Positions 5,485-22,200 of a stretch of 24,000 bases of DNA are shown piece by piece. Positions within the stretch are counted from its first letter, which is position 1; every line of letters starts with the position of its first letter. The notes beneath the pieces were generated by a model. The model saw only the letters and a list, made by a program, of their open reading frames with translations. It ran no database searches and was not told where the DNA came from. Position numbers and translations under genes: made by a program. This DNA is from an uncultured Psychrobacter sp. (GTDB lineage: Bacteria; Pseudomonadota; Gammaproteobacteria; Pseudomonadales; Moraxellaceae), in contig CAUPWW010000005.1 of NCBI GenBank assembly GCA_963515535.1, forward strand, positions 180,804 through 204,803, read 5' to 3'.

Positions 5485-5503
5485 ATACCTAACGAAAACC
5501 TAT

Positions 5504-5527: not shown

Positions 5528-5543
5528 ACATCCGGAGAAAGTT

Positions 5544-6473: not shown

Positions 6474-6484
6474 GGATTATAAAG

Positions 6485-6961: not shown

Positions 6962-7251
6962 CAGACTTTGATATTGAGGTGATGGCGCATTTAGGGCTTG
7001 ATGTGCCAGAACCGCCGAGTTTTGATGCTAGCATTCAGGACGTTATACAGACGTTCTATTTGGTCGATAGAGGACGCAATTATACAGAGGGACAACCACT
7101 GCCGATAAGCGTAAAGAACATCACAGACGTTGTTAGTGTGCATCCTATTGATGTGCCTCGCAGTGTGTTAGATAGTATTATTTTTGAGCTTGATAACTTG
7201 GTATTAAATGAAGTAGCAGAGAATAATAAGAAGGCTGCGGATAAGGCTTGA
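6919..7251 (+). CDS. T-like extension of the chaperone (expressed as a GT fusion of ~255 aa via -1 frameshift)
   Basis: The -1 frame is open from 6919 through the track ORF 6979..7251. No convincing independent RBS precedes 6979. Confidence 0.6.
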   Translation, partial: AVEVYRYQKEYAGLTDFDIEVMAHLGLDVPEPPSFDASIQDVIQTFYLVDRGRNYTEGQPLPISVKNITDVVSVHPIDVPRSVLDSIIFELDNLVLNEVAENNKKAADKA

Positions 7252-7372
7252 CCCTCAAAACAGGGGTGAAGGGTCACCGATTCGATGACCGTTGCGGTCT
7301 GCATATTTGTAGAGTGATGTGCGAATATGCACATCGGTAGCCGACGCAAAATTGCGTTGGCTTTAAAATCAA

Positions 7373-7582
7373 CTACTTGCCTTGCTCGAGTATCGCGATA
7401 TAGATTTTATCTAGCTTACGATGAATATCGCTATCAGTCACATGGTCGGTATTGTTTAATGATTCATCAAGGCGGTGGATAAGCTCAGCGTTTGCTGAAC
7501 GGTTGTTGTCCGCGGCTGACTGGTCTAGTCGCTCTTTTAGCTCAGCAGGTATCCTATAGGTTACAGGTACGTTTTTAGACAC
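7373..7582 (-). CDS. Arc/Mnt-family ribbon-helix-helix repressor
   Basis: VTYRIPAELKERLDQSAADNNRSANAELIHRLDESL aligns with the P22 Mnt/Arc core (FNFRMPMEVREKL…ANGRSMNSELLQIV). GTG start with AGGA 6 nt upstream. Confidence 0.75.
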   Translation of the reverse strand: MSKNVPVTYRIPAELKERLDQSAADNNRSANAELIHRLDESLNNTDHVTDSDIHRKLDKIYIAILEQGK

Positions 7583-7616
7583 GTTAAATCCTAGTTGGGT
7601 GGTTAATGATGGTTAA

Positions 7617-7645
7617 ATAATATCTTAATTGTTTGCACATTGCAA
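7617..7645 (-). promoter_or_regulatory. Candidate sigma70 promoter for the RHH gene (TTGCAA-17-TATTAT on the minus strand)
   Basis: -35 element at 7640-7645 and -10 element at 7617-7622, read on the minus strand. Confidence 0.45.
7633..7645. promoter_or_regulatory. 13-bp palindrome TTGCAcatTGCAA, candidate operator
   Basis: A perfect 5-bp inverted repeat with a 3-bp spacer covers the -35 elements of both divergent promoters. Confidence 0.4.
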
Positions 7646-7662
7646 TCATAACATGATATTAT
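7633..7662 (+). promoter_or_regulatory. Candidate promoter for Rha paralogue 2 (TTGCAC-18-TGaTATTAT)
   Basis: -35 element at 7633-7638 and -10 element at 7657-7662, with a TG extension at 7654-7655. Confidence 0.45.
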
Positions 7663-7690
7663 AACCATGTGCTTGAGAAAACTTAGGCAC

Positions 7691-7733
7691 AAAAAAGCCC
7701 CATACATTACTTTCGACGGATATGTATGAGGCT
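7691..7733 (-). terminator. Minus-strand intrinsic terminator inside the rha2 5' leader
   Basis: The minus strand reads gcctcatacat-(14 nt)-atgtatggggc-TTTTTT. The stem is 11 bp with one G-U pair. Confidence 0.5.
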
Positions 7734-7760
7734 GTTAACCCTAAACGAGAGGTATTAACA
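7691..7760 (-). ncRNA. Candidate ~70-nt cis-antisense RNA (sar-like) covering the rha2 RBS and start codon
   Basis: A minus-strand promoter TCGACA(7790-7795)-17-TATACT(7767-7772) predicts a start near 7760, and the terminator ends at 7691. The transcript would be complementary to GAGAGG…ATG of rha2. Confidence 0.35.
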
Positions 7761-8288
7761 ATGAGTAGTATAGCATTGAGTTTTAATAATGTCGATTTAG
7801 TATCAATTGATGGCGGCGAGCCAAGAACCACGTCATTAGCAGTGGCTAAGAAATTTGGTAAGCGTCACGGCGATATACTGCGAGCTATTAAGAATATGGA
7901 TTGCTCGCATGAATTCTCACTACGCAATTTTGCGTCGTCAGATTTTATAGACGAACGCGGCAAGGTGCGTCGAATGTTTAACATGACCAAAGACGGTTTT
8001 GTATTCTTGGTTATGGGCTTTACAGGTAAAGTGGCGGCTGAATTCAAAGAAGATTACATTAACGAATTTAACCGCATGGCTGACAAACTGAATGGCAATA
8101 TCGGTACATTGCTAGAGCGCCATAATGCAAAGTCAGGTATCTTGAAACAAGGTGAGGCAATCGCGTCCGATAGCGGCTATAACTTGTGGTTCTTTGGTCA
8201 AGTCAAAAACCCAAAGACGCGCACAGAATTAAAAGAAATTGAAAAAGAGTTGCAGCCTATGTTGCCTAATATTGAGGTGAAGAAATGA
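7761..8288 (+). CDS. Rha-family phage regulatory protein (paralogue 2, antirepressor-like position)
   Basis: ATG at 7761 follows GAGAGG. The Rha pattern is present (…EPRTTSLAVAKKFGKRHGDILRAIKNM…GFVFLVMGFTG…). It is divergent from the RHH gene. Confidence 0.65.
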   Translation: MSSIALSFNNVDLVSIDGGEPRTTSLAVAKKFGKRHGDILRAIKNMDCSHEFSLRNFASSDFIDERGKVRRMFNMTKDGFVFLVMGFTGKVAAEFKEDYINEFNRMADKLNGNIGTLLERHNAKSGILKQGEAIASDSGYNLWFFGQVKNPKTRTELKEIEKELQPMLPNIEVKK

Positions 8289-8536
8289 GCAATCAATGGA
8301 TAAGCGTTGATGACAGAATGCCCAAGGTAAAGGATTACTGCCTGACACTGGGTTCTAATGACGATGTAGAGTTTGCGGTCTATACTCAAGATAGAGATGG
8401 TTTCTACTTTGCCTCGATAGACGCGCCGATATGTGATAAATTCGGTTATGACAATAACGGAATCCTATACGGTGAGTTAACTAATATCAGATATTGGTTT
8501 CCATTGCCGCAACCGCCTAACCTAGACAACAACTAA
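8285..8536 (+). CDS. DUF551-like protein
   Basis: WISVDDRMPK… at the N-terminus and …RYWFPLPQPP at the C-terminus match the DUF551 pattern. ATGA overlap with rha2. Confidence 0.55.
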   Translation: MSNQWISVDDRMPKVKDYCLTLGSNDDVEFAVYTQDRDGFYFASIDAPICDKFGYDNNGILYGELTNIRYWFPLPQPPNLDNN

Positions 8537-8597
8537 ATAAACATTACGGCTCAAGTGAGTGTAATGTGAGTTGCAATCATGGGCTAGGGGATTGATT

Positions 8598-8807
8598 GTG
8601 AAAAGAGATATTAAAACGCTTGATGATGCGAATGAGATTTTAAACGTACATGGCATTGAGAAGTCGAGAGCTATCGTGCGTGATGCGCCTGATGGCGTAG
8701 AGTCATACTCATGGGTACTTGGCGAATCAGGTATTAGAGATAAGGAAGTTTGGATTTGTGATTTAAAGGACGCTATAAGTATCGTAGATAGAGAGGTGGT
8801 GAAATGA
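8598..8807 (+). CDS. Hypothetical protein
   Basis: GTG at 8598 lies 7 nt after AGGGGA, while the track's TTG at 8571 lacks an RBS. The 3' end is coupled to the next gene by an ATGA overlap. Confidence 0.4.
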   Translation: MKRDIKTLDDANEILNVHGIEKSRAIVRDAPDGVESYSWVLGESGIRDKEVWICDLKDAISIVDREVVK

Positions 8808-9037
8808 AACAGCTAACGCAAGCGGTTTTTGATGGCGCACCTGACTGGGTTAAGAGTGCAGCGGTTGATAGTACAGGTGATGTTTACTTTTACGCTGTAC
8901 CAAAAAAAGAACTCTCTTTTGATTCCGATGAATGTTGGTGGGTTTATTTGGGCGATAAGGATAATTCGCAAACTTATAGCCCTTATGAGGGTTACGACGC
9001 AACCGATTGGAAGGATAGCGCAATAGATAGAGTTTAA
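8804..9037 (+). CDS. Hypothetical Trp/Asp-rich small protein
   Basis: 77 aa, translationally coupled to the upstream gene. Confidence 0.45.
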   Translation: MKQLTQAVFDGAPDWVKSAAVDSTGDVYFYAVPKKELSFDSDECWWVYLGDKDNSQTYSPYEGYDATDWKDSAIDRV

Positions 9038-9122
9038 ACCCTCCACGCTGCCTAGGCTCATTACCGAATCGTGGGAACGCTACCCACTTGGCAGCACCTT
9101 ATTAGCGATTACTAAGCGAGTG

Positions 9123-9623
9123 ATGACAATGAAAAGTGTAATAATAAAAACACTAAAGGCGGTGTTTGTTCTTAGCGCAATTATGATAGTGATTGGCGTT
9201 ATTGCTGGTCTTTTTGAGAGTAGTGATGATAAAGCCGCAAGAGAGCTTAAAAACGAGCAAGACAAGATAGCAGCCACGCCGCAAAAGGCGGAAAAAGCAG
9301 TTGAAGATAACGCGCCTGAGCCTGCAAATGCTACGCCAATAGATACCCTAGTGGCGGACAATCAGCCTGATCCAACCATAGGCGGCAAAACTCGCATGGA
9401 TGTTTTAGTAGATTGTCAGACGGCAATACAAAAACAGTTGAGCAATCCACGCTCGTTTGATGTAAAAACTCGTGAGATTATCCATAAGAAGTACGAAGAC
9501 GGTGGCGAGCACTTAGTTGGCTTTAAGTTTTACGCAAAAAATCAATTCAATGCTGAATCGGAACACATGGCAGTATGCGCCTTTGACCATAACGGCAAGC
9601 GACTGACCGCAGAATACAAATAA
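9123..9623 (+). CDS. Membrane-anchored protein (N-terminal TM helix plus a ~75-aa C-terminal domain)
   Basis: Hydrophobic segment AVFVLSAIMIVIGVIAGLF. The C-terminal part CQTAIQKQLSNPRSFDV…FYAKNQFNAE…AVCAF resembles small prophage cargo (lipo)proteins. The start could be 9120, 9123 or 9129. Confidence 0.5.
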   Translation: MTMKSVIIKTLKAVFVLSAIMIVIGVIAGLFESSDDKAARELKNEQDKIAATPQKAEKAVEDNAPEPANATPIDTLVADNQPDPTIGGKTRMDVLVDCQTAIQKQLSNPRSFDVKTREIIHKKYEDGGEHLVGFKFYAKNQFNAESEHMAVCAFDHNGKRLTAEYK

Positions 9624-9644
9624 AATTAATTATTTTTAATCAAG

Positions 9645-9667
9645 CCACCTTTTTAGGTGGTTTTTTT
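9645..9667 (+). terminator. Intrinsic terminator 25 nt upstream of the tape measure gene
   Basis: Stem ccacct / aggtgg, loop tttt, then T7. Confidence 0.75.
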
Positions 9668-9692
9668 ATGTCCAAAATAAGGGGTCGCTGTC

Positions 9693-12600
9693 ATGGCTGA
9701 AGCACAAGAAAGCCGTCTTAGTATCGTAATTGATAGTGCGGACGCTGAAAAACGCATTAAAGAGCTACGCAAGCAATTACGCGAGCTTGGGCAGCAGTCA
9801 GATGAAACGGGCGACAATACCGATGATTTAGGACGCAGACAGCGCCGAGCAAGTGATGATGCTGGTAATTTAGGCAGCGCCAATGATAACGCTAGAAAGT
9901 CACTAGATAACATGGCAAAGGCGGCCGCTATTGCAGGGGCGGCATTGGCAGGTGCAATCGGGCTATCCATCAACAAGGCTCAGTCTTGGGAGTCGGCACT
10001 TGCAGAGATTAATAAAACGGTTGATTTTGCAGCTGAGGACGGCTTAGCTAATATGCGTAAAGGTCTGCAAGAGCTGACCACGCAGATACCGCAAACGTTT
10101 GAGGAGTTGGCAGCCGTAACTGCTACTGGCGGACAGCTTGGTATTGCCGAAGAAAACTTGCTTGGCTTTACTGAGACTATGGCAAAGATGGGTGTGGCTT
10201 TTGATATACCAGCACAGCAAGCCGCTGACAGTATGGCAAAGATTGCTAACGTATTCCAAATCCCTATTGAAAATATTGATCGTTTAGGCGATGCAATCAA
10301 TACGCTATCAAATAACACACCTGCTACTGCCGCCCAGCTCATTGATTCACTGCAACGTGTCGGTGGTGTCGCTAAGGTCTTTGGTTTGACAGAGGACGCG
10401 ACATTAGGCTTAACAGGTGCATTGATTGCTATGGGTAAGCCTGCCGAAGTCGCATCAACGGCGGTCAACTCGCTATTAACTACGTTCTCAACACTGGATA
10501 ACGCCACCAAGTCACAAATTAAAGGGTTTGAGAAACTAGGCTTAGATATTGACGAGTTTAGTAAGTTGGTCGCAACCGATGGTAAACAAGCGATTATTAC
10601 TTACTTAGAGGCTATTAATAAACTAGACCAGTCAGAGCGCATCGGTACAAACGCTATGATTATCGGTAAAGAGTTTGGTGACGACTTAACCATGCTTGCT
10701 GGTAGTGTCGGCGTATTAGAAAACAACTGGGCAATGCTTGGTGAAACGGTCAACACAACCAAAGATTATTTTGGCTCAATGGATGTTGAGTTTAAAAAAA
10801 TTAGCGAAACGTCTGCAAATAAAATGAAGTTATTTAAGCAGAATATAGATGGCGTGGTTGCTGGTATCGGTGACGCCTTTATCCCTGCATTAAATGACTT
10901 GCTTTACACCCTAACGCCTTTTATCGCTACGATGAGTATATGGGTATCTGAGAATCCTGAGCTAATTAAGCAGATTGTGACCATTGGTGGCGCTTTTCTT
11001 GGTTCTGTTGTTGGGTTAAAGCTTTTTGCTGATGGTGTTAATGCTGCAAAAAGCACTGTCGATGGCTTAAAGCTTGCTTATACGGCGTTGGGTAGCACGA
11101 TGGGCTTAACGGTTATCGGTCTAGGTATTTTGCTGGCTGCTGGCGTACTGGTTTATCAAAACTGGGATGAGATAAAACGCGTTGTTAGTGAAAATCAGCC
11201 GATGTTTATTGCTTTGGGCGTGTCAGTAAGTGCGCTCACAGTGGCCTTAGTTGCAGCCAATGCGCCATTGATACTATTAAAAGTACAGGCGGCAGCGGCG
11301 GCGGTGCAAGCAGGTGTGATGACTGTGGCAACCGCAAGTTGGTCAGTGGCAGCAGGTGTGGCAGCAGCAGCAACCTGGACGTTTAATGCGGCGCTAGCTG
11401 TCTTAACCAGTCCAATACTTGCGGTGGTTGCGGCCATCGCCTTAATCGCGGCGGGTGGTTATCTAGTCGTTAAAAACTGGGCTGCTATCAGCGCTGGGCT
11501 TAACGCTGAGTTTAATAAGATAAAAAGCTATGTATTAAACACGGTTGCAACTATGCAGGCGGCTTGGGATAGAGGAGTGGCTAATACCCGTGGCGCAATT
11601 ATCAATATCAAAAACACTATCGTCACCACGTTAAAAGAGCTGCCTAGCCGTATGCTGCAAATCGGCAAAGACATTGTTACGGGCTTGGTCAACGGTATTA
11701 AGTCAGGCGCAAGTGGTGTGACTACCGCAATCAGTAGCATGGCATCAAGCGCAGTTGCTAAAGCCAAAAGTGTTCTCGATATTCGTAGCCCATCACGGGT
11801 AATGAAGAAAGTCGGCGAGCAAACAGCCGAAGGTATGGCAGTCGGCATCAAGAAAGGCGCAAAGGCTGTTAAAACCGAAGCACAAAAGATGGCTGAGCAA
11901 GCAGTGGCGGCCGTCAAAACAGGCGTGGAAAACTTAAAGCGTGAGATTGCATTATTTGGCAATGATAGCCCAGTCGCTGCGCTTAAATATGATATTAGTG
12001 TCGGTAAGTTTGGCGGCGCTGATACCAGTCAGCTAATGTCATTAACGCAGACCAAAGAGCAACTAGAGTTATCTAAAAAGCTCGCAGATGCCAATAAATC
12101 AGTGCAAGACAGTATCGACGGTCTTATCAAGCAACAAGCCTTGTTTGGCAATAATAGCTCGCTTGCTTCGCTCATGTACGATATTGAGCATACCGAGAAA
12201 TACAAAGGCGTGACGCAAGAGCTAACCGATAAGCTAATCGAGCAAACACGAGCGCTTGAGCAATTAGGCATGACCGCGAAAGCGACCGATGCTATTAGGG
12301 CGCGATTTGCACAACTTGAAAAAGCTAAGGAAACATCGAGCGAAGGCTTAGATAAAATGCTCGGAGGTATCGAGCAAGAAACGCCAATTGGTAAAATACA
12401 GGCCGATTATGAGCAGCGATTAGAGGTGGTTCGTCAGTTTGAGCAACTACATACCGACGAAGTGCAAAAAGCGGCAGAAGCAAGAATGGCAGTTGAGCAA
12501 AGCTACCAAGACGCTAAACGCAATCTCATGCTAACGCAAGGCGAGGCGCTGTTTGGTGATTTAGCAGGGTTGGCAAAAGGCTTTGCTGGTGAGCAGTCAG

Positions 12601-13088
12601 GCATCTACAAAGCATTGTTTGCCGTTGAAAAGGGCTTTGCCATTGCACAATCCGCTATAGCTATTCAGCAATCAGTAGCAAAAGCCATGGCCGTTGGTTT
12701 TCCTGCCAACATACCTTTAATCGGGCAAGCCATAAGCCAAGGCGCTGACATTATGGGCAACATCAAAGCGGTATCAGCAGGCTTTAAAAAGGGCGGTTAC
12801 ACAGGTAATGCAGGCGTCAATGATATTGCAGGGGTTGTCCATGGCCGTGAGTACGTGTTTGATGCTCAGTCTACTAAGCGTATTGGGGTTGATAATCTTA
12901 ATGCGATGCGCCGAGGTGATAAGGTTGGCGGTGATGTGAATATCACGGTCACAGTAGATGCGCAGGGCAATAGCTCAGTATCGGGCGATAACGAACGAAT
13001 GGGACGTGACATGGCAAACGGTATCAAAGCTGTGGTTATGGACACGTTACGCAAAGAGAAACGTCAAGGAGGTATGCTTTATGCTTAG
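9693..13088 (+). CDS. Tail tape measure protein
   Basis: 1131 aa. It has a TP901-type core (…AEINKTVDFAAEDGL…MAKMGVAFDIPAQQAADSMAKIANVF…), central hydrophobic segments, and a lambda H-like C-terminus (GGYTGNAG…GVVHGREYVFDA). By the ~0.15 nm per residue rule, this length implies a tail of about 170 nm. Confidence 0.9.
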   Translation: MAEAQESRLSIVIDSADAEKRIKELRKQLRELGQQSDETGDNTDDLGRRQRRASDDAGNLGSANDNARKSLDNMAKAAAIAGAALAGAIGLSINKAQSWESALAEINKTVDFAAEDGLANMRKGLQELTTQIPQTFEELAAVTATGGQLGIAEENLLGFTETMAKMGVAFDIPAQQAADSMAKIANVFQIPIENIDRLGDAINTLSNNTPATAAQLIDSLQRVGGVAKVFGLTEDATLGLTGALIAMGKPAEVASTAVNSLLTTFSTLDNATKSQIKGFEKLGLDIDEFSKLVATDGKQAIITYLEAINKLDQSERIGTNAMIIGKEFGDDLTMLAGSVGVLENNWAMLGETVNTTKDYFGSMDVEFKKISETSANKMKLFKQNIDGVVAGIGDAFIPALNDLLYTLTPFIATMSIWVSENPELIKQIVTIGGAFLGSVVGLKLFADGVNAAKSTVDGLKLAYTALGSTMGLTVIGLGILLAAGVLVYQNWDEIKRVVSENQPMFIALGVSVSALTVALVAANAPLILLKVQAAAAAVQAGVMTVATASWSVAAGVAAAATWTFNAALAVLTSPILAVVAAIALIAAGGYLVVKNWAAISAGLNAEFNKIKSYVLNTVATMQAAWDRGVANTRGAIINIKNTIVTTLKELPSRMLQIGKDIVTGLVNGIKSGASGVTTAISSMASSAVAKAKSVLDIRSPSRVMKKVGEQTAEGMAVGIKKGAKAVKTEAQKMAEQAVAAVKTGVENLKREIALFGNDSPVAALKYDISVGKFGGADTSQLMSLTQTKEQLELSKKLADANKSVQDSIDGLIKQQALFGNNSSLASLMYDIEHTEKYKGVTQELTDKLIEQTRALEQLGMTAKATDAIRARFAQLEKAKETSSEGLDKMLGGIEQETPIGKIQADYEQRLEVVRQFEQLHTDEVQKAAEARMAVEQSYQDAKRNLMLTQGEALFGDLAGLAKGFAGEQSGIYKALFAVEKGFAIAQSAIAIQQSVAKAMAVGFPANIPLIGQAISQGADIMGNIKAVSAGFKKGGYTGNAGVNDIAGVVHGREYVFDAQSTKRIGVDNLNAMRRGDKVGGDVNITVTVDAQGNSSVSGDNERMGRDMANGIKAVVMDTLRKEKRQGGMLYA

Positions 13089-13416
13089 GACGTTTACATG
13101 GTGCGTCGATGCAGGTGCAACTGAGGAAATCGAGCTTAAAACCAACGTCACGCAGTTTGGCGATGGTTATGAGCAAGTATCGAGTATCGGCATTAATAAT
13201 GCGCGTGAGAGTTGGCCGCTTAGTGTGAAAGGGCGGAGCGACAAAACCAAAGCGGTCAGGCAATTTTTGCTTGACCATAAGGGCGTGACCCCGTTCATTA
13301 TGACGATTGACGGTGAAACGAAAACCTATCGAACGGACGGCAATATCAGCAGGAATCATTTAGGCGCTGATGTGTGGCAAGTCTCATTTAACGTCAAACA
13401 AGTATTTATACCTTAA
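13081..13416 (+). CDS. M: Minor tail protein, lambda gpM-like
   Basis: ATG at 13081 lies 7 nt after AAGGAGGT. MLRTFTWCV…VTQFGDGYEQ…FLLDHKG parallels lambda M (MKTFRWKV…VRFGDGYSQ…FLEEHGG). Confidence 0.8.
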   Translation: MLRTFTWCVDAGATEEIELKTNVTQFGDGYEQVSSIGINNARESWPLSVKGRSDKTKAVRQFLLDHKGVTPFIMTIDGETKTYRTDGNISRNHLGADVWQVSFNVKQVFIP

Positions 13417-13418
13417 TT

Positions 13419-13532
13419 ACCGACCCGCACGGCAACACCAAACAATATACCTGCGCCGGTGTATCGATACCGCAGCGCAAAGGCGATCATTGGCAAATCA
13501 CGCTCAACTTTGAGCAGTTTAATAATACTTAA
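13419..13532 (+). pseudogene. Fossil 3' end of a second gpM-like gene
   Basis: One frame of the 'intergenic' DNA reads TDPHGNTKQYTCAGVSIPQRKGDHWQITLNFEQFNNT*. This aligns with the intact M-like C-terminus DGETKTYRTDGNISRNHLGADVWQVSFNVKQVFIP*. There is no start codon and it is out of frame with the gene upstream. Confidence 0.6.
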
Positions 13533-13540
13533 GGATTGGT

Positions 13541-15007
13541 ATGCAAATACAAAAAATAAACCTTGGTGCTGAGCCCAAAGGCATCGGCGGCGACAGCGCA
13601 CGGACCAGTAATGGCAAGGTTAACGACAATTTTGATGCGGTAGCAGCTGAATTTACAGACGTCAAAGCCTTGATACCTAAAGTGACCTCTGAGCTTGGAC
13701 AATCGACAACGACAGCGATATCACAAAAGCTGTTTACTGATACCGTCATTCCGACATTTGAAGACATTGGCGTTGCAGGATCGATATCATTTGGTATTGG
13801 CATTACAACCAACCTACCGCCTGGCATGTCAGAGATGGAAGGCACGCGCATCAAGGGGCATAGTAATTACGGCAACTATCAATATAGCGATGGCTCGGTG
13901 ATGTGCTATGTCCCCATGTTCTATTATCGCTGGGGACATGCAAGCAATCCTAGTTACGCGACTCACGGTCTTAACTCATGCGACGTTAAGTCAAAACAGG
14001 CATTCGCAAGCATTGCAGCGGCACAAAGTGCAGGTTACGCAATTCATCGCGCTTTTTATGACGATGGCCAATTAAAAAACGGCTTCTTTGTTGACAAATA
14101 TCAAGCGAGTAACAACGCAGGCAAAGCAAGCTCTATCAAAAACGGCATTCCACTGTCGTCATCTAGTGCCAACGCGCCATTCAGTGGATTGACTGGCTCC
14201 CCTGCTAACAACCTAGCTGGATCAATCGATGCTGTCAAAACCCGTGGCGCAAACTTCTTCCCGACGACCATCTTTATCCAGCGCGCGCTATCGTTGCTTA
14301 GCATGGCTCATGCCCAAGCAGCAACGAGCACGGCGGCGTGCGCTTGGTACGATGCGTCTGGTGTAACCAATTACCCTAAAGGGTGCAATAACAACGCACT
14401 GCGCGACGTAAACGACACGAGCGTTATCTATGAAGAGACCGGCTACTTAACAGCGGGCAAAACAGGGTCAGCAAAACCATTTGCCAAGACCACGCACAAC
14501 GGCCAGCACAGCGGCGTTGCAGACTTAAACGGCAATATGTACGAAGTGGCTTTAGGGTTGACGCAGACAGACGGTAATTTTTACATCTTAAAAACCAGTG
14601 CTAAAGCGTCAGCACTCACAAGCGGGGTAACGCTTGCGACCGACGCGTGGGGCACTGCTGCAATGACCAAAAGCTATGACTCGCTAGGTGCAAGCTATGG
14701 TGAACTCACAGGCGAGAGTCGCAGTTTTGCCATCGGCTCGACAACCAAGCAAGTATTCTCAAGCGCCAACAGTGGTCTGGCTTGGTCGGCATCCTGCGCA
14801 GGCATACCCCAACTTGGCGGCTCAGATGGCACCAACATATTTGGCAACGACCGCTTCTACGACAATCGAGTTGAGCACTTGTGCCCGGTTGTGGGCGGCA
14901 ACTGGAACAACGGCACGTATGCTGGTGTCTGGGCGGTCCATTGCTACTTTTTTCGGTCGAACAGCAACTACAACTTCGGTGTCCGGGCGGCCTTGTACCC
15001 TGTTTGA
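13541..15007 (+). CDS. DGR target: tail-fibre/receptor-binding protein with a C-terminal C-type-lectin/FGE-like fold (Mtd analogue)
   Basis: The N-terminus has a fibre-type motif (GGDSARTSNGKVNDNFDAV). HNGQHSGVADLNGNMYEV is FGE/CLec-like. The last ~40 codons form the VR (…CPVVGGNWNNGTYAGVWAVHCYFFRSNSNYNFGVRAA…). Confidence 0.85.
   Translation: MQIQKINLGAEPKGIGGDSARTSNGKVNDNFDAVAAEFTDVKALIPKVTSELGQSTTTAISQKLFTDTVIPTFEDIGVAGSISFGIGITTNLPPGMSEMEGTRIKGHSNYGNYQYSDGSVMCYVPMFYYRWGHASNPSYATHGLNSCDVKSKQAFASIAAAQSAGYAIHRAFYDDGQLKNGFFVDKYQASNNAGKASSIKNGIPLSSSSANAPFSGLTGSPANNLAGSIDAVKTRGANFFPTTIFIQRALSLLSMAHAQAATSTAACAWYDASGVTNYPKGCNNNALRDVNDTSVIYEETGYLTAGKTGSAKPFAKTTHNGQHSGVADLNGNMYEVALGLTQTDGNFYILKTSAKASALTSGVTLATDAWGTAAMTKSYDSLGASYGELTGESRSFAIGSTTKQVFSSANSGLAWSASCAGIPQLGGSDGTNIFGNDRFYDNRVEHLCPVVGGNWNNGTYAGVWAVHCYFFRSNSNYNFGVRAALYPV
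14880..14990 (+). repeat. DGR variable region (VR)
   Basis: 111 nt collinear with the TR at an offset of +566. There are 12 mismatches, 11 of them opposite TR adenines. Both repeats share the GC-rich 3' end cggtgtccgggcgg, after which the flanking sequences diverge. Confidence 0.9.
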
Positions 15008-15032
15008 CTGAGCGATAGCGAAGGAGTTTGAG

Positions 15033-15416
15033 TTGGCAGTAGACAGCGAGTCAAATTTAGATAAGAAGTTCATTCAAACGATGAAGCTTCTAAATATCTA
15101 TCTTAATCATTTCCCAAGCCATGAGAAGCATGGCTTGGCGCTTAAAATAAGACAAACCGCTTACGAGATGTATGACTACATCGTCGAAGCGCAAAAGCGT
15201 TATCACAAGAAGACGACGCTTACCAATTTAGACATCAAGCATGAGCAGCTCAGAATGCAAGTTAGGCTTGCGTTCGAGCTGTCCTATTTCGGTCATCCAA
15301 AGACCGAAAAGATGTCTGTGCAAAAATTAAATGCCAAACTTTATCTTGTGATATCAGCAAGTATCGATGAGATCGGCAAGATAATCGGCGGTTGGATTAA
15401 ATCACTAAAACAATAA
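15033..15416 (+). CDS. avd: DGR accessory variability determinant (Avd, four-helix-bundle family)
   Basis: TTG start 6 nt after AAGGAG. 127 aa and basic. FPSHEKHGLALKIR and the C-terminal EIGKIIGGWIKS resemble the Avd family as I recall it (unverified). Its position between VR and TR fits. Confidence 0.7.
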   Translation: MAVDSESNLDKKFIQTMKLLNIYLNHFPSHEKHGLALKIRQTAYEMYDYIVEAQKRYHKKTTLTNLDIKHEQLRMQVRLAFELSYFGHPKTEKMSVQKLNAKLYLVISASIDEIGKIIGGWIKSLKQ

Positions 15417-15445
15417 GGTGCTCCAAAAAGGGAGGCGTCTTAATA

Positions 15446-15556
15446 TGTGCCCGATTGTGGGCGGCAACTGGAACAACAGCACGAATGCTGGTGTCTGGAC
15501 GGTCAATTGCAACAATTCTCGGACGAACAGCAACAACAACATCGGTGTCCGGGCGG
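15446..15556 (+). repeat. DGR template repeat (TR)
   Basis: This is the non-coding copy of the VR. In the VR frame it carries 11 AAY codons. It contains 29 adenines, 11 of which are substituted in the VR. Confidence 0.9.
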
Positions 15557-15692
15557 ACTCGGCATCACCTAAATCGGCAAGCTGCCGACTGGTGCCAAGG
15601 GAGACGTTTTCCTGCTTTAAGCGAAATCGGTTTAAACCCGTCTTTCTAGTAGCGCACGCGAAAGTCAGACGGGTTCTTTTTTAAGGATTGTT
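15557..15692 (+). ncRNA. DGR spacer (Sp) portion of the TR-containing RNA
   Basis: A 136-nt untranslated gap lies between the TR and the RT ATG. It contains hairpin tcggca-agc-tgccga (15573-15587) and a long stem aacccgtctttc / gaaag(tc)agacgggtt (15635-15675) followed by T6. Confidence 0.55.
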
Positions 15693-16760
15693 ATGAAAAG
15701 GGTTGGTAATTTATACGAATCCGTAGTCTCAGCCGAATCATTATGGGACGGCTATTTGGGCGCAAAGAAAAGCAAAGGTGGTCGACGTGGGTGTTTTCAG
15801 TTTGAAAAAAGCCTAGGCCGCGAGCTAAACGAATTACAAGAAGAGTTGGCAAACAACTCCTATAAGCCAAGACCCTATTTTAGATTTGTAGTACATGAGC
15901 CAAAAAAGAGGGAGATATATGCCCCAGCATTTAGAGATTGTGTTGTGCAATATGCAATCTATTTAAGAGTTATGCCAATATTTGATAAAACCTTTATAGA
16001 CCAGTCATTTGCTTGCCGTGTTGGGCTTGGCACACACAAGGCTGCCGACTATACGCAAGACGCGCTCAGAAGAGCCGGCCCCAATACCTACACGCTACAA
16101 TTAGACATAAAGAAGTTCTTTTACAGCATAGACAGACCGACTCTTAGAAAATTGCTAGAGAAGAAGATTAAGGATCAGCGCTTGGTCGATTTGATGATGT
16201 TGTTTGCGGACTATCCCGAACCCAAAGGCATCCCAATCGGGAATCTGTTGTCGCAAATGTTTGCGTTGATATACATGAATCCTGTAGACCACTACGCCAC
16301 TAGAGTGCTGAAGCCAGCAGCTGGGTATTGTCGTTACGTTGACGACTTCTTATTGTTTGGCTTGACCCGCGCGCAAGCACTGAAGTACAGAGAATTGCTG
16401 ACAGATTTTGTAGAAAATGAGCTCAAATTGACCCTATCACGATCAACGATAGCCAATACCAAACGCGGCGTTAACTTTTGTGGCTATAGAACCTGGCGCA
16501 GCGGCAGGTTTATTAGGAAGCACAGCTTATACAAGACTAGAAAAGCTGTAAGGGCCAATAAACTGGAATCTGTTATATCGCATCTTGCGCATGCCTCAAA
16601 AACCCATTCACTGCAACATCTACTAAATTATACGGAGCAACAAAACCATGGCTTATATTGTGAGCTACCAAAAATTTATCACCAAAGACACTACCAAGCA
16701 GTTGGACGCTCCGGAGGGATCAGTGGAGTTATGTACAATCGATGGGGTGACGTATGTTAG
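15693..16760 (+). CDS. DGR reverse transcriptase
   Basis: IPIGNLLSQMFALIYMN is the DGR-type (I/L)GxxxSQ motif, and YCRYVDDFLLFG is the YxDD box. RBS AAGGA at 15683-15687. Confidence 0.9.
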   Translation: MKRVGNLYESVVSAESLWDGYLGAKKSKGGRRGCFQFEKSLGRELNELQEELANNSYKPRPYFRFVVHEPKKREIYAPAFRDCVVQYAIYLRVMPIFDKTFIDQSFACRVGLGTHKAADYTQDALRRAGPNTYTLQLDIKKFFYSIDRPTLRKLLEKKIKDQRLVDLMMLFADYPEPKGIPIGNLLSQMFALIYMNPVDHYATRVLKPAAGYCRYVDDFLLFGLTRAQALKYRELLTDFVENELKLTLSRSTIANTKRGVNFCGYRTWRSGRFIRKHSLYKTRKAVRANKLESVISHLAHASKTHSLQHLLNYTEQQNHGLYCELPKIYHQRHYQAVGRSGGISGVMYNRWGDVC

Positions 16761-17046
16761 CGTGCCTGATGATGCGGACTTGCCCATCAATCAGCCGGAT
16801 GAAATTGTAGACACTGTGCAGCCAGTGGTAATGAATGACGATCTGCGAGAGCTGATTAAATCACAGTCAACGCATGTGCAGCTCATCGATGATCGCGTCA
16901 AAGCAAAGATTGCCGAACGCTACAGCATCACCGATGAGATTAAGCAATTACGCAGCGCACCTTCCGTCGAGTTCGACGAGTACGCAGAATATGCAGAATC
17001 ATGTCGCGCCTGGGGCCAAGAACAGAAATCAATGCTGGGGCTATAA
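16648..17046 (+). CDS. Hypothetical acidic protein (possible fibre assembly/chaperone-like)
   Basis: 132 aa of protein-like composition. GGAG lies 10 nt upstream. It overlaps the RT 3' end by 113 nt, and its stop is 1 nt before the L-like ATG. Confidence 0.5.
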   Translation: MAYIVSYQKFITKDTTKQLDAPEGSVELCTIDGVTYVSVPDDADLPINQPDEIVDTVQPVVMNDDLRELIKSQSTHVQLIDDRVKAKIAERYSITDEIKQLRSAPSVEFDEYAEYAESCRAWGQEQKSMLGL

Positions 17047-17047
17047 C

Positions 17048-17881
17048 ATGCTTTCATCTGACCTACAAAAGTTATCGGTTACAGGGCTTGTCACACTATA
17101 TGAATTAGATGCTACCAAGCAAGGCGGCGGCATATTGCGATGGCACGGCCATGTGAGTTTTGAAGACTGGCGCAAGTTATTTGAGTGGGCCGGCAGCACG
17201 GAAACACTAGCGGGAGACACCACAGTCTTGGCTGGTACAGATTATACGCAAAGTCCTACAGAGACTGATTTTTTTAGAAACATCGTTTGGCAAGGCCAAA
17301 AATACACTCCGGTCGCCATCCAAACTGATGGGTTGGAGATTCGCGGTGATGGCAGACCATCTGCGCCAACGCTTATTATTGGAAATAACATCGATGGTAT
17401 TAATGGCGCAGTCACGGCGTTGTGCGCCTTTTACGGCGACTTTGTTGGCGCAGAGCTCCGCGTTATCCATGTATTAGCAAAATATCTTGACGCAGCAAAC
17501 TTCGGCGCAGGTAATCCAACAGCTGATAGTCAGCAATATACTGACCAGTACTGGACCATCAATCAAAAGACCCACGAATCGCTAAGCGAGCAAGACAGCT
17601 CAGTGGCGTTTGAGTTATCAACGCCGCTCACCGCCCAGCGCAAGATGATACCTAGTCGCACGATTACTAAGTATTGCGACTGGGCGGTCAAAGGCAAATA
17701 TCGCGGCGAATCATGCGGCTACACAGGTACCGCTATGTTTACTGAGGATGGCACACCAACCGATAATCCCGCGCTCGATAAATGCGGTGGCTGTTTAAGT
17801 GATTGTAAGCTGCGTTTTGGCGAGCATGAGCCACTCTCGTTTGGTGGATTCCCAGCTGCATCGATGATAGGCCGACGATAA
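17048..17881 (+). CDS. L: Minor tail protein, lambda gpL-like
   Basis: VWQGQKYTPVAIQTDGLEIRGDG…APTLIIGN, YRGESCGYTG and DKCGGCLSDCKLRFG parallel lambda L, including its 4-Cys (Fe-S) cluster. The ATG at 17048 is used rather than the track's 16874. Confidence 0.9.
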   Translation: MLSSDLQKLSVTGLVTLYELDATKQGGGILRWHGHVSFEDWRKLFEWAGSTETLAGDTTVLAGTDYTQSPTETDFFRNIVWQGQKYTPVAIQTDGLEIRGDGRPSAPTLIIGNNIDGINGAVTALCAFYGDFVGAELRVIHVLAKYLDAANFGAGNPTADSQQYTDQYWTINQKTHESLSEQDSSVAFELSTPLTAQRKMIPSRTITKYCDWAVKGKYRGESCGYTGTAMFTEDGTPTDNPALDKCGGCLSDCKLRFGEHEPLSFGGFPAASMIGRR

Positions 17882-17890
17882 GGAACCCGT

Positions 17891-18640
17891 ATGTATATTT
17901 TAAAAGAAACACGCGAAGCAATACTCAATCACGCGGCAGCTTGTTATCCCAGGGAATCTTGCGGTGTGGTTGTTAATCGAATCTATATCGAATGCGAAAA
18001 TATTGCTGATAGCGACAATGAGTTTGTTATCAGTCCGCGCGATATCGTCGCCGCTGAGGCGTTCGGTAAAATAGAAGCGATTGTACATAGCCATCCTGAC
18101 GGCTCAACCAAGCCCAGTACGTTCGACCTTTTGCAGATGCCATTACACGGGCTGCCATGGGTGATTGCCAGCTATCCTGAAGTAGATATCAAAGTCCATA
18201 AGGCCAAACCATATACTGCGCCGTTAATTAACCGTGAATACATCCACGGCGTACTGGACTGCTTTAGTATCGTGCGAGATTACTATGCCCGTGAGCTGAA
18301 TATTGAGATTGATAACTTTGAGCGACTGGACCGCTGGTGGGAAAACGCCGCCAACGCGGATTTATATGTCGATAACTTTGCCTCACAAGGCTTTGTCCAA
18401 GTCGATAACTTGCAGCGCCACGATGTCATCTTGTGCCGCGTGCAACCAACCGCCCATGTCAATCACGCGCTTATCTATTTAGGGGGTGATGGTCAATTGC
18501 TATCTGAGAAATCAGAAACCGTTATTGGCGATCACTTAGTATTGCATCATCCATACCGCCGCCGCTCGCGCCGTGAGATTTACGGCAATGTCTGGCAAGA
18601 GCGCAGCGCGATCATCGTGCGCCACAAATCATTAATGTGA
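17891..18640 (+). CDS. K: Tail tip assembly protein, lambda gpK-like (MPN/JAMM plus NlpC/P60)
   Basis: JAMM motif HSHPDGSTKPSTFD. The NlpC/P60-type catalytic Cys context is GVLDCFSIVRDYY, with a downstream His in HALIYLG. Confidence 0.85.
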   Translation: MYILKETREAILNHAAACYPRESCGVVVNRIYIECENIADSDNEFVISPRDIVAAEAFGKIEAIVHSHPDGSTKPSTFDLLQMPLHGLPWVIASYPEVDIKVHKAKPYTAPLINREYIHGVLDCFSIVRDYYARELNIEIDNFERLDRWWENAANADLYVDNFASQGFVQVDNLQRHDVILCRVQPTAHVNHALIYLGGDGQLLSEKSETVIGDHLVLHHPYRRRSRREIYGNVWQERSAIIVRHKSLM

Positions 18641-18647
18641 GGTAATC

Positions 18648-19202
18648 ATGCTTCGACGCATCGAGCTACACGGCATCTTAGCCGAAAAATTTGGCAAGTC
18701 ATTTGAGTTTGATGTGGCGTCGCCCCGCGAAGCCTGCGAGGCACTGAGCTACGAAGTCGATGGATTTAGAAGGTTTATGATGACCGCCCACGAGAGCGGT
18801 CTTTTTTTCGCCGTATTTAATGATGATAACAACATTGGCGCTGATGAGGTTGAGATGAAAACGGGTGCAAAAGTCATTCGTATCGTACCCAAAATTACTG
18901 GTGCAGGCGGTGACGCGATGGGCTGGATTCAGGTTATTGCTGGTGTAGCACTAATTGGTTTTAGTGGCGGCAACCCAGCCATGATTGCGGCTGGCGGTGG
19001 TATGTTACTTGGCGGTGCCGCAACACTACTTATGCCTCGACCTACTATCACTCCGCAAGACCCGGACGGCAATAAACCCAGTTATGCATTTGGTGGCGCT
19101 GTCACTACTGTTGCTGAAGGCAATCCTGTCGCCGTTGGATATGGCCGCTTCCACTGGGGCGGTGCTGTTATTAGTATGATGATCGTCAATGAGGATACGT
19201 AA
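18648..19202 (+). CDS. I: Tail assembly protein, lambda gpI-like
   Basis: 184 aa with a Gly-rich hydrophobic C-terminal half. It lies between the K-like and J-like genes. Confidence 0.75.
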   Translation: MLRRIELHGILAEKFGKSFEFDVASPREACEALSYEVDGFRRFMMTAHESGLFFAVFNDDNNIGADEVEMKTGAKVIRIVPKITGAGGDAMGWIQVIAGVALIGFSGGNPAMIAAGGGMLLGGAATLLMPRPTITPQDPDGNKPSYAFGGAVTTVAEGNPVAVGYGRFHWGGAVISMMIVNEDT

Positions 19203-22200
19203 TGTCATTATTAGCAATTAAAGGCGCCAAAGCCGGCCAGGAAAAACCGCACCAGCCGTCTATTGCCAAAGACGATGTCGCCTCTATCAGTAAGGTTAAG
19301 ATTTTGTATGCGTTATCGGAAGGTGAAGTCAAAGGCTTGGTCGATGGCGCGGCCAGTATTATGCTGGACGGCACCCCACTATTGGATGCTGACGGCAATC
19401 CAAACTTTGAAAACGTCGAATGGGAAATCCGCCACGGTACGGTTGACCAAACGCACATTGCAGGGCTGCCAAGTCTCAGTAGTGAGATTGGTATTGGTAC
19501 GATACTTCGCAGCGGTACGCCATGGATTCGCACCATCACCAATACCCAATTATCTAGCGCCAACGTCAATGTATCTTGGTCACGCCTCAGCGACACGACT
19601 GATAAAAATGACATCATTGGTACCAAGGTTGATTATGCGATTGATGTCCAAACCGACGGCAATGGCTATGTAACAGTACTCGATACCAGCATCAAAGCCA
19701 AAACCTCGGGGCGCTATCAGCGCACGCACAATATCAAACTGCCAGAAGCACAGCAAGGTTGGCAAATTCGTGTGCGTAAAATCACTGCTGATGGCGACAA
19801 TGAGCGCAAGTTTAATCAGATGCAGATTGATAGCATCGCTGAGATTATCGATGCCAAACTACGTTATCCGCATACGGCCTTGCTGTATCTATCGTTTGAT
19901 GCGCGTGCGTTTAGCAATATCCCTAAAATGACGGTTGATATGTACGGCCGTTATCTTAAAGTACCTGTCAATTATGACCCTGTTAGCCGTACCAGCGCGG
20001 GCATTTGGACTGGTGAACTTAAAACAGACTATACCAACAACCCTGCGTGGGTGTATTACGACCTCATCACCAATGATCGCTATGGCCTTGGCGACCGCTT
20101 AAAGCCATTTATGATTAATAAATGGGCCATTGCTCATATCGCGCGTATCTGTGATGAGCCAGTCAGCGATGGTAAAGGCGGCACTGAGCCGCGCTTCACT
20201 TGTAATTTGTATTTGCAGGTCGATGAGCAAGCATACCAAGTGCTGCAACATATCGCCGCTATCTTTCGCGGCATGAGTTTTTGGAATGGCGCACAGATCA
20301 TTTTAGATGCAGATACCCCGCGCGATGTCGACTATGTCATCACCCGCGCAAACGTGGTTGACGGCGCCTTTATTAAAAGCGGCACCGCCATTGATGATCG
20401 TCATACGGTCGCGCAAGTAGCATGGTCAAACCCAGAAAACAACTATGAGACAGACTATGTAATGGTGCGCAATGAGCGTGCGATTGCAAAATACGGCATT
20501 AACCCACTTGAGATGCCAGTTGTCGGCTGTACCAGCGAGGGGCAAGCATACCGCGCAGGACTGGCGGCATTACTCTCTGAACAAAACCGCACGCAAACCG
20601 TCACATTTACGATGGGGCTGGATGGCTCACTACCGACCGTCGGTGACCGTGTTGATATTGCAGATATGATGTTCACTGGCGTTAATAACGGCGGGCGCAT
20701 ATCAGCAGTTAATGCAAACCGTACCGTCATTACTATTGATCGTGATGACGTCCCTGCAACCACTGGCGACAGATTAAGCGTTAACTTAGAGTCTGGCCGC
20801 GCTCAAACGCGTGAAATCTTAAGCGTATCTGGACGCAATATCACAGTAAAAACACCATTTGACCCAGTTGCCGCAGAAAATGTCTGGGCAGTTGATAGCG
20901 ATGAGCTACCAACCATGTCATTTATCGTGCTATCAATCACAGAAAACGAGGATAGAACGCAATACACGTACACCGCACTGCAATATGACGCGGGGCTCTA
21001 TGCGCAAATCGATAATGGCACCATTATTGAGCCGCGCCCACCAGCACCGCCGTTTAATCCGTATATCATCCAAGCACCGGATAGTGTCACGGTGTCATCA
21101 CGTAACCGCGTAGTACAAGCACAAAACGTCACCACATTCGTTATCGTGTGGAGCCAAGTTAAAGATGCGGTCGCATACGACGTTGAATGGCGTAAAGATG
21201 ATGGCGACTGGATTAAGCTGCCACGCACGGGCAATATTTCAGCTGAAATAGACGGCGTTTACAGTGGTAATTATCTGGCGCGTGTTCGCGCTGTATCAGC
21301 ATTTGATGCCATCTCAAAACCGACAACATCAATGCTCACTGCCATTACTGGTAAAGCAGGCAAACCACCAAAACTTCTATCAATTAAAGCAACTGGCTTG
21401 CTCTTTGGTATGCGCATTGATTGGATGTTTGCACCAGGCAGTGACGACACGGCTTATACAGAGATACAAGTCGCCTCTGCACCTGATGTTAATGTCGCAA
21501 CCCTGGGTCAGTTTGCATACAGTACCGATACTCACACGATTAACGGACTGCAAGGCGGATTGACACAGCACTATCGTGGTCGCATCGTCGATAAGCTTGG
21601 CAACACCAGCGACTGGACGACTTGGGTTAGCGCGACAACAGACCAAAGTGCTGACAAAGTGCTGGACTTAATCCAAGGTCAGATAACCGGTAGTAGCCTC
21701 GATCAAGCCCTAACTAGCCAGATTGATAAAATTGCAGTCAATGAAACTGCAATTATTGCCGCCAACAAAGCCATCGCTGCAGAAACGCAAGCTCGCATTG
21801 ATGCAATACTAGCAGCTAATGACGCTATCACTGCTGAGCGCGACGCGCGTATCGCCGATGTTTTAGATGCAAATAACAAAATTACCGCAGAGCAGCAAGC
21901 GCGGACCGCAGGTTTATTGGCTGCTAATGAGGGCATCTCAACAGAAGTAACACAGCGTAAAGACGCAGATACCGCTATCAATAGCCGCGTTGATACTCTC
22001 GTTAGCAAGACTGATGGCAATACAGCAGCTATTAGCAGTGAAGTAACCGCTCGCACCAATGCAGACACCGCACTATCAAGCCGCATCGATACTGTGGTGG
22101 CTCAAAGCGACGGTAATACGGCCGCTATTAGTAGTGAAGTGACCGCCAGAACCAATGCTGATAGCGCACTCTCTACTCGTATCGATACGGTTACCGCTGA

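Follow-up and report, generated by a model that had tools for sequence, protein, structure and literature searches.

A Truncated M Gene Marks a Putative Non-Homologous Join in the Tail Module of a Psychrobacter Lambda-like Phage

Introduction

The DGRs of Bordetella phage BPP-1 (Mtd-Avd-TR-RT) and of Thermus (TaqVP) combine a protein of C-type-lectin fold, which carries the VR at its C-terminus, with Avd, TR and RT. The DGR described here resembles both in these parts, in the adenine-specific differences between TR and VR, and in the predicted fold of its target. Unlike in BPP-1, where the target lies distal to the tail genes, the present target is located within the tail-tip module of a lambda-like siphophage, between the homologues of gpM and gpL, and unlike in either system its N-terminal motif is common to non-DGR fibres of the PF25670 family and an additional conserved frame, orf132, follows the RT. 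Homologues of lambda M, L, K and J are recognizable at the Pfam/PDB level in the lambda order M-L-K-I-J, with only a weak match for I, but unlike in lambda, M and L are parted by a fibre slot.

The backbone TMP-M-slot-L-K-I-J is shared with phage Psymv2 (NC_023734) and with prophages of P. faecalis and P. arcticus 273-4 (Psyc_0449 locus). The two prophages carry the same M-DGR-L cassette, and Psymv2 harbors a PF25670 fibre (orf41) instead of the DGR. In contrast to the window (the whole stretch of 24,000 nt analysed here), all three have a single M, no fossil M fragment and different left arms; the fossil has its intact counterparts in orf40 of Psymv2 and in the M gene of P. faecalis. To explain mosaic 'novel joints' in HK97, HK022 and other lambdoid phages, Hendrix and colleagues reportedly proposed an illegitimate-recombination model. 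As in those joints, affinity in the window switches at a single nucleotide near a gene boundary, with no homology and with a functional gene set kept. It differs in that the joint lies off the boundary on one side, where a 114-nt gene fragment remains, and in that both parental configurations are readable from relatives.

Results

Layout of the Tail Module

The window represents the tail module of a lambda-like (pro)phage of Psychrobacter. Two phage types are distinguished in it, namely A-type (affinity to relatives such as L115) and B-type (affinity to, e.g., the P. faecalis and P. arcticus prophages), and the tail genes are as follows:

9693-13088, + strand: TMP (tape measure protein, 1131 aa), body mosaic, C-terminal ~105 codons A-type only
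13081-13416, + strand: M_A, intact gpM-family minor tail gene, 111 aa (PF05939 Phage_min_tail, E 1.3e-24)
17048-17881, + strand: L, gpL-family minor tail protein, 277 aa, B-type (PF05100 Phage_tail_L, E 2.6e-60)
17891-18640, + strand: K-like gene, JAB + NlpC/P60, B-type
18648-19202, + strand: I-like tail gene, B-type, weak Lambda_tail_I match
19202-24000, + strand: J-like central tail fibre gene, open frame of ~1600 codons that runs off the window

The first 8 nt of M_A lie within the end of the TMP gene, as in A-type relatives, and the M_A product is 97% identical (aa) to that of L115 and 90-93% to those of L007, L008 and L031, with a further match to the lambda tail tip protein M in the PDB (8iyk_M, E 3.6e-4). 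The J-like gene is collinear with Psymv2 orf46 and the J gene of L003. In a lambda-type block M is followed immediately by L, whereas here 3631 nt lie between the M stop and the L start, comprising a 124-nt stretch (13417-13540), the target, avd, TR, RT and orf132. The coordinates that an earlier note on this DNA had given for M, the intergenic stretch, the DGR parts and L are all correct.

The DGR Cassette and Its Target Fibre

The cassette between M and L contains the following features:

13541-15007, + strand: DGR target / tail fibre, 488 aa, with a ~35-aa N-terminal motif, a helix and a C-type-lectin/FGE-like body
14880-14993, + strand: VR, C-terminus of the target, 13 differences from TR, 12 of them at TR adenines
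15033-15416, + strand: Avd (accessory variability determinant; PF22296 bAvd, E 1.6e-17)
15446-15559, + strand: TR (template repeat)
15693-16760, + strand: DGR RT, 355 aa (PF00078 RVT_1, E 2.5e-16), IGNLLSQ and YVDD present
16648-17046, + strand: orf132, conserved ORF of the DGR cassette, overlapping the RT 3' end by 113 nt

The DGR is canonical, having Avd, an RT adjacent to the TR, a TR/VR pair with adenine-specific differences and a target with a TaqVP/Mtd-like (C-type-lectin/FGE-like) fold. In five relatives, the share of TR/VR differences found at TR adenines ranges from 15/16 to 17/17, and across six relatives the TR is kept at 111-114 of 114 positions with the VRs differing at different adenine sites; apparent VR turnover is shown at the level of lineages, and is indirect evidence that mutagenic retrohoming may be ongoing. 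A simple inverted-repeat scan detected no IMH-associated hairpin downstream of the VR. The orf132 product is 66-81% identical (aa) to its counterparts in L003, L005 and L013, with no match in Pfam or PHROG. Literature searches for a DGR with Psychrobacter, or with a minor tail protein, returned nothing relevant.

The target has a helix at residues 20-44 followed by the ~415-aa body, and its AlphaFold model (pLDDT 81) matched TaqVP best in Foldseek (5vf4, E 7e-11), followed by Mtd (E ~0.02), with FGE also matched. Residues 3-35 match phrog_12499 (tail fiber). An HMM of the slot-fibre N-terminus revealed that the ~35-aa motif is common to non-DGR slot fibres and DGR targets, with E values of 1.7e-7 for the L013 target and 6.6e-4 for the window target, the next unrelated match being at 0.24. 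Only these N-terminal ~35 aa are shared, and the PF25670 (Phage_tail_C_2) C-terminal domain has no match in the target. The fibre probably attaches via this common motif. Docking specifically on M would be expected to appear as co-variation between M type and fibre N-terminus, but no co-variation was seen: M_A pairs with both types of fibre N-terminus (L007 versus L008), and likewise M_B, the B-type M (L003 versus Psymv2).

A Fossil of a Second M Gene

Directly in front of the target, two short features were identified:

13419-13532, + strand: fossil, codons 76-112 and stop of a B-type M gene, first 75 codons deleted
13533-13540, + strand: native M(B)-target spacer, 8 nt, same spacing and sequence in L003 and L005

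The fossil frame translates as TDPHGNTKQYTCAGVSIPQRKGDHWQITLNFEQFNNT followed by a stop, and is set at -1 relative to M_A. Its sole Pfam match is PF05939 (profile positions 73-106 of 108), against which the fossil alone scores 13.9 bits, below the 39-bit cutoff. It shares 37% identity with the C-terminus of the window's own M (pairwise E 2e-4), and in tblastn it is 97% identical to residues 74-112 of M_B, a member of PF05939. At the nucleotide level, fossil and spacer together (13419-13540) are the same at 122/122 positions as the 3' ends of the intact 112-aa M genes of L003, L009 and L033 (P. faecalis prophages and one metagenome contig), at 110/122 as P. arcticus 273-4 and at 93/103 as Psymv2 orf40 (E 1e-35). 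In P. faecalis, this DGR target is likewise present, immediately downstream of the intact M. The resemblance of the fossil frame to M goes far beyond chance. Having codons 76-112 only and no start codon, the fossil is not a complete, translatable gene; it is a gpM-family pseudogene fragment, the remnant of a second M gene rather than a second M gene. Two M-like segments were found in the window only, among ~110 related loci searched with M proteins. The earlier note had read 13419-13532 as resembling an M C-terminus, and as a partial foreign M gene that came in with the DGR-bearing DNA; the significant similarity to gpM-family proteins and the complete identity to M_B uphold both points.

The 8-nt spacer and the fossil's stop codon form an AAGGA ribosome-binding site, and the fossil itself would be without a function of its own. 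A retained function, be it as a leader or regulatory RNA of the target gene, as a -1 frameshift extension of M or as a homology landing pad for later exchange with B-type phages, would account for its zero decay relative to L003, and the -1 frame of M_A is indeed open over the ~27 nt that precede the M stop. Yet there is no start codon or canonical slippery heptamer, the RNA fold z-score is -1.3 with no Rfam match, and none of the other ~110 loci retains such a fragment. Moreover, the perfect identity does not end with the fossil but continues rightward for 319 nt and reaches into the target gene, which points to recency and not constraint, and we regard a function as highly improbable. Promoter- and terminator-like sites in 12500-18000 were no commoner than in shuffled sequence.

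The Recombination Joint

Immediately upstream of the fossil, the affinity of the window changes abruptly:

12779-13418, + strand: segment of A-type affinity only (3' end of the TMP gene, intact M and the 2 nt after its stop), 84% nt identity to L007 and 84-93% to L115
13418/13419, no strand: blunt recombination joint, where A-type similarity ends with TAA+TT and B-type identity begins with ACCGACCC

No bases are common to the A-type end (13416-13418) and the B-type start (13419), so there is no microhomology, and the terminator-like hairpin found after M in A-type phages is absent at the joint. M_A and M_B types share only ~40% aa identity and no usable nucleotide homology, so the two could not have been joined homologously at this place. 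With an abrupt switch, both parental types documented intact and zero microhomology, the joint is, as far as its bases tell, illegitimate and not homologous. The recombination scar proposed in the earlier note is thereby borne out, but not the homologous exchange that it invoked.

The junction is known from the window sequence alone. An exact junction 24-mer had no match in viral_contigs, neither a 24-mer nor a degenerate 24-mer had any in metagenome_contigs, a search of the plasmid database gave no match, and an exact-protein look-up found neither the window's M nor its target on record. A junction unique across all collections scanned, next to proteins likewise absent from the records, is what a contig misassembled from two co-occurring Psychrobacter phages would also give. 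We consider such a chimera very unlikely, since assemblers join at shared k-mers and the two parental types have no sequence in common there, whilst a position 2 nt past the stop, with the full M and the target's ribosome-binding site kept, is expected from selection on a real recombinant.

Two Parental Arms

The left arm, at least 9 kb in length (tail tube, chaperones, TMP and intact M), has A-type affinity, and the right arm, at least 7 kb (fossil, DGR and L-K-I-J), has B-type affinity. Similarity to L115 in the left arm runs from 3967 to 13416 and stops at the M stop codon, with 90% nt identity in the 5' part of the TMP (9234-11085) and 93% nt (97% aa) identity in M. The TMP body (10002-12766) is ~80% identical (nt) to L003, a B-type relative, with which no nucleotide homology was found for ~12770-13418. 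From 13419 to ~16900 the identity to L003 is 81-100% per 100-nt bin, the first mismatch rightward of the joint being at 13738, after 319 nt of perfect identity; this perfect stretch suggests that the recombination was recent. The identity continues at 84-99% nt through most of L-K-I-J. The L-K-I proteins share 90-96% aa identity with L003 versus 53-57% with L115 (L alone, 96% versus 53%). A second mosaic break relative to L003 was observed at about 16900-17044 (273-nt indel).

The earlier note had the cassette wedged into the tail-tip block. If only the DGR cassette and a little foreign M had been inserted by homologous exchange where M and L had been adjacent, one could expect 13419-16900 to be the stretch closest to L003, which it is (95-100% in many bins), and a second break such as that at 16900-17044; M-L adjacency is also the rule in the wider family (64/76 loci). 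This is nevertheless unlikely, because the joint lacks homology, the L-K-I proteins came with the B-type arm or are part of it, the target body (81-97% to L003) is conserved no more than L-K, and the slot is occupied in the sampled Psychrobacter relatives, with A-type parents carrying a fibre there. Since B-type affinity runs through L-K-I-J and the whole left arm from ~3967 is A-type, the event is, on these comparisons, an arm swap and not a cassette insertion. Replacement of only a patch (TMP C-terminus and M) was ruled out, as the upstream segments 3944-7251 and 9120-9623 match L115, not L003.

We therefore favor, with a probability of roughly 0.85, that the tail module was built by a non-homologous join of two related phage types. 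An A-type phage would have contributed the tail tube, chaperones, TMP with its A-type C-terminus and complete M, and a B-type phage M from codon 76, the fibre gene, avd, TR, RT, orf132 and L-K-I-J. The join would have fallen 2 nt past the A-type M stop, leaving the dead B-type M (114 nt) and the 8-nt spacer with its ribosome-binding site before the target. The recombinant presumably survived because the joint left M_A whole and did not disturb the translation signals of the target. An exact parent was found for neither arm, and as the best left-arm relative, L115, reaches only 78-93% nt and the TMP is itself mosaic, more than one recombination event may be superimposed.

The scar is clean but ordinary phage mosaicism, and leaves existing knowledge of DGRs and phage recombination unchanged. 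It is a well-resolved case of mosaic origin, in which both parental configurations survive and the breakpoint is placed to the nucleotide, and it explains the illegitimate nature of the joint by the lack of nucleotide homology between M types on the M side of the slot.

The M-L Slot among Relatives

In A-type relatives the order is M, terminator hairpin, ~290-aa PF25670 fibre and L, and in each of the closest M_A relatives (L007, L008, L031 and L115) M is followed by a T-run hairpin and then the PF25670 fibre. The closest target relatives have an intact M_B upstream at an 8-nt spacing, and this order is native in the P. faecalis and P. arcticus prophages. The M-L gap is almost always occupied in Psychrobacter relatives, by the ~290-aa fibre or by the DGR cassette, with two loci having a small ORF in it, and M directly adjoining L was found in none of the close Psychrobacter relatives sampled. 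Direct M-L adjacency before the event, as the earlier note assumed, is therefore not supported.

In this Psychrobacter phage clade, a receptor-binding gene is maintained in the gap from gpM to gpL, with DGR cassette and plain fibre alternating. Knowing this helps in the annotation of these prophages and in the choice of a system for finding where on a lambda-like tail tip a DGR fibre sits. The first 24 residues of L are almost all invariant across the aligned A and B types, which leaves homology on the right (L) side of the slot only. It is possible, though we hold it tentatively and rather doubt it, that the gap is a dedicated slot for the exchange of side fibres, with PF25670 and DGR C-type-lectin alleles on a common N-terminal anchor, perhaps also in other Moraxellaceae lambda-like siphophages. 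Swaps between types would then be illegitimate on the M side, the window having caught one; the M/L ring, and not J, would be the docking site of the anchor, and a natural system with a DGR fibre beside a fixed central fibre, J, would be at hand.

Outside the clade, a DGR between M and L is as unusual as the earlier note held. M adjoins L in 64 of the 76 IMG/VR M-relatives, relatives from Acinetobacter, Pseudomonas and Pasteurellaceae have nothing in the slot, and of the target's 80 best relatives in IMG/VR three lie in the M-L slot and 77 elsewhere. In L037, the DGR is placed after a J-like gene, before lysis.

Gene layout of the tail-tip module

A lambda-like tail-tip module occupies the plus strand from 9693 to 24000, and the gene coordinates and family matches obtained agree with the layout drawn up in the earlier note.

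Features of the tail-tip module (position, strand, identity)
9693-13088, +, TMP
13081-13416, +, gpM-family gene (PF05939, E 1.3e-24)
13417-13540, +, 124-nt gap between M and the target
13541-15007, +, ORF of the 488-aa target, the DGR variable protein
15033-15416, +, Avd (PF22296)
15446-15559, +, template repeat (TR)
15693-16760, +, reverse transcriptase (RT)
16648-17046, +, orf132
17048-17881, +, gpL (PF05100, E 2.6e-60)
3' of gpL, +, K-like JAB/NlpC-P60 gene, I-like gene, then J-like gene, which continues past the window end

The tail structural module also contains genes resembling moron-type insertions at 4934-5458, 7722-8288 and 8285-8536, placed ahead of the tail tube gene and between the chaperone genes and TMP; two of them encode Rha-family regulators (PF09669) and one a DUF551 protein. 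The J-like gene contains an internal 96-nt tandem repeat at 22019-22480 (4.8 copies, 66% matches) that gives 32-aa repeats, and the same internal repetition was seen by BLAST in the J of Psychrobacter phage Psymv2.

A fossil M gene end and the recombination joint

The locus combines a textbook illegitimate-recombination scar with a canonical DGR that occupies a tail-gene slot specific to the clade. The frame at 13419-13532, here called the fossil, translates as TDPHGNTKQYTCAGVSIPQRKGDHWQITLNFEQFNNT followed by a stop codon. Its sole Pfam match was to PF05939, positions 73-106 of 108 (the C-terminal third), with 13.9 bits, which is below threshold, as expected of a fragment, and it aligned with the C-terminus of the window's own M at 37% identity (E 2e-4). 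Among phage genomes, BLASTN aligned 13419-13521 with the 3' terminus of Psymv2 orf40, a gpM homologue (93/103 nt, E 1e-35), while the tail genes flanking the fossil are just 68-78% identical to those of Psymv2. The nearest relatives of the 488-aa protein are prophage-encoded, in P. faecalis (94% aa) and in P. arcticus 273-4 (Psyc_0449, 80% aa), and in these prophages an intact 112-aa M gene stops 8 nt before the target ATG. Positions 13419-13540 are identical (122/122 nt) to the M 3' end and spacer of three such loci (L003, L009 and L033, P. faecalis prophages and one metagenome contig), and the perfect identity runs on rightward to 13737. This match indicates that the fossil represents codons 76-112 and the stop of an M gene of the L003 kind (B-type), the first 75 codons being gone. 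The identification of 13419-13532 as a gpM-family C-terminal remnant, made earlier from the sequence, was therefore upheld by the Pfam, Psymv2 and P. faecalis matches alike.

No function was found for the fossil: its frame has no start codon, the sequence shows no evident slippery site, RNA folding gives a z-score of -1.3, Rfam gave no match, and a second M fragment occurs in none of the other loci among the ~110 searched. Its perfect preservation is attributed to recency, the identity reaching well beyond the fossil itself.

The intact M of the window shares only ~40% protein identity, and no nucleotide match, with the B-type M. Its nearest relatives are in L115 (97% aa) and in L007, L008 and L031 (90-93% aa), related phages referred to as A-type. 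Each of these has the order M, GC hairpin with a T-run, a ~290-aa protein carrying PF25670 (the "phage tail protein C-terminal domain") and L, the terminator-like hairpins lying between M and the slot fibre at 7340-7382 in L007, 1394-1446 in L008, 825-859 in L031 and 9334-9377 in L115. A-type similarity stops at the M stop codon, or 2 bases on as in L008 (TAATT), and B-type identity starts at 13419 (ACCGACCC). The joint is blunt and illegitimate, because the bases flanking it do not match the opposite parent; the homologous exchange proposed in the earlier note does not agree with such a switch, nor with M types that have no nucleotide match. The A-type hairpin and fibre were lost in the outcome, and the B-type spacer was retained with its AAGGA ribosome-binding site, the B-type phages having only 8 nt between M and target. 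The window's junction was seen in no other viral or metagenome contig searched. An assembly chimera of two phages is unlikely, given that the parental types have no k-mer in common at the joint.

Affinities of the two arms

The window was compared along its length with L003 and L115, as representatives of the B-type and A-type, respectively.

Nucleotide identity of the window to the two loci
L003, 10002-12766 (TMP body): ~80%
L003, 12770-13418: no homology
L003, 13419-13737: 100%
L003, target body: 81-97%
L003, avd, TR and 5' half of RT: ~99%
L003, 16900-17044: down to 64%, a second mosaic break, with a 273-nt indel just 5' of the L start codon
L003, L-K-I and first 1.5 kb of J: 84-99%
L115, 3967-4390: 93%
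L115, 5489-7235: 78%
L115, 9234-11085: 90%
L115, 12779-13083: 84%
L115, 13084-13416: 93%
L115, right of the joint: scattered pieces at 65-74% only, with one J segment (~23063-23318) at 82%

The L, K and I proteins are 53-57% identical to those of L115, and nothing corresponding to the tail tube and chaperone genes of the window was detected in L003. These affinities indicate a left arm of at least 9 kb that is A-like and a right arm of at least 7 kb, including L-K-I-J, that is B-like, and they argue for an arm swap instead of the cassette wedged between M and L that had been suggested. Older events are superimposed, the TMP being mosaic in its own right. Overall, what the earlier note observed (the fossil and the layout) stands, and its interpretation is borne out in part only.

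Occupants of the M-L slot in related phages

The gap between M and L was surveyed by an L-profile scan with one genome per species, together with loci fetched by protein look-up. The order M-PF25670 fibre-L was found in 10 Psychrobacter loci and in Psymv2, L007, L008, L031 and L115; M-DGR-L in the window, P. faecalis, P. arcticus and Psychrobacter sp. 72-O-c; and M-small ORF-L in two Psychrobacter loci (L014, 7606-7995; L019, 7654-7998) and Moraxella phage Mcat10 (L114, 4032-4433). The small ORFs encode 114-133 aa, with no obvious resemblance between the Psychrobacter and Moraxella translations when compared by eye. M directly adjoins L in Acinetobacter, Pseudomonas, Glaesserella and Gallibacterium. 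Cassette-free junctions exist among relatives; those of the sampled Psychrobacter loci hold a fibre or a small ORF, and in none of these loci does M directly adjoin L. Ranking by L identity intersperses DGR-bearing loci with fibre-bearing ones, a pattern that implies repeated swapping.

Among IMG/VR relatives of M, M and L are adjacent in 64/76 loci and none of the 76 has a DGR in the gap, while target relatives lie between M and L in only 3 of the best 80 in IMG/VR. In one locus (L037), the DGR lies after the gene for a J-sized protein and ahead of a muramidase gene, the canonical distal position. The M-DGR-L architecture, which the earlier note had called unusual, is so in general, but it is standard for this clade. 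Several M-L-adjacent loci carry a PF25670-type fibre after J (L128, L180, L191 and L194). The fibres 3' of J that are related to the slot fibre lie at 15181-15777 in L024, 17499-17984 in L128 and ~16-17 kb in L180, L191 and L194, those of L024 and L128 carrying the slot-fibre N-terminal motif; it therefore seems that the fibre gene was relocated between clades.

In Psychrobacter nivimaris LAMA 639 (L018), the N-terminal motif of the fibres is present in two consecutive slot ORFs (522-980 and 941-1741; 96 and 77 bits). The pair resembles a partial duplication and may mark a further recombination scar in this slot. In Psymv2, the gpL homologue is divided between two overlapping ORFs (orf42/orf43, 6989-7528 and 7525-7803); a sequencing error, a frameshift or a programmed shift could account for the split.

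Target protein, repeats and orf132

An HMM of the first 45 residues of 11 non-DGR slot fibres, searched against 1061 ORFs, found the DGR targets of L013 (E 1.7e-7) and the window (E 6.6e-4), the next unrelated ORF being at E 0.24, and an independent PHROGs match assigned residues 3-35 of the target to a tail fibre family. These matches indicate a common N-terminal motif, a putative anchor, in the DGR target and the plain slot fibre. From about residue 75 onward, the target consists of a module that occurs widely, attached to many differing N-termini. The AlphaFold model of the target (pLDDT 81) matches TaqVP, a DGR variable protein (E 7e-11), followed by Mtd and by formylglycine-generating enzymes. 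For the C-terminal region of the PF25670 fibre, the match was to 7z47_D, a solved structure named "putative tail fiber". No co-variation was seen between M type and N-terminus type, so docking of the fibre specifically on M is unsupported.

The repeat pair 14880-14993 (VR) and 15446-15559 (TR) shows 13 differences, 12 of them at TR adenines, as would be expected of a canonical DGR. The TR is kept at 111-114/114 among six relatives, whose VRs depart from it at differing adenine positions (15/16 to 17/17), indicating VR turnover in the lineage. The one non-adenine difference in the window is C to T (15518 in the TR, 14952 in the VR); L003 and L033 also have a single one each, at other positions.

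The orf132 gene (16648-17046 in the window, 9109-9765 in L003, 9112-9510 in L005 and 7329-7724 in L013) is found, with 66-81% aa conservation, in all M-DGR-L cassettes that were examined. It lies in a different frame from the RT and shares ~110 nt with the 3' end of that gene. It had no match in Pfam or PHROG. The L003 copy has a 273-nt C-terminal extension matching phrog_14311 and phrog_6034. An accessory role, associated with the DGR or the fibre, is possible for orf132.
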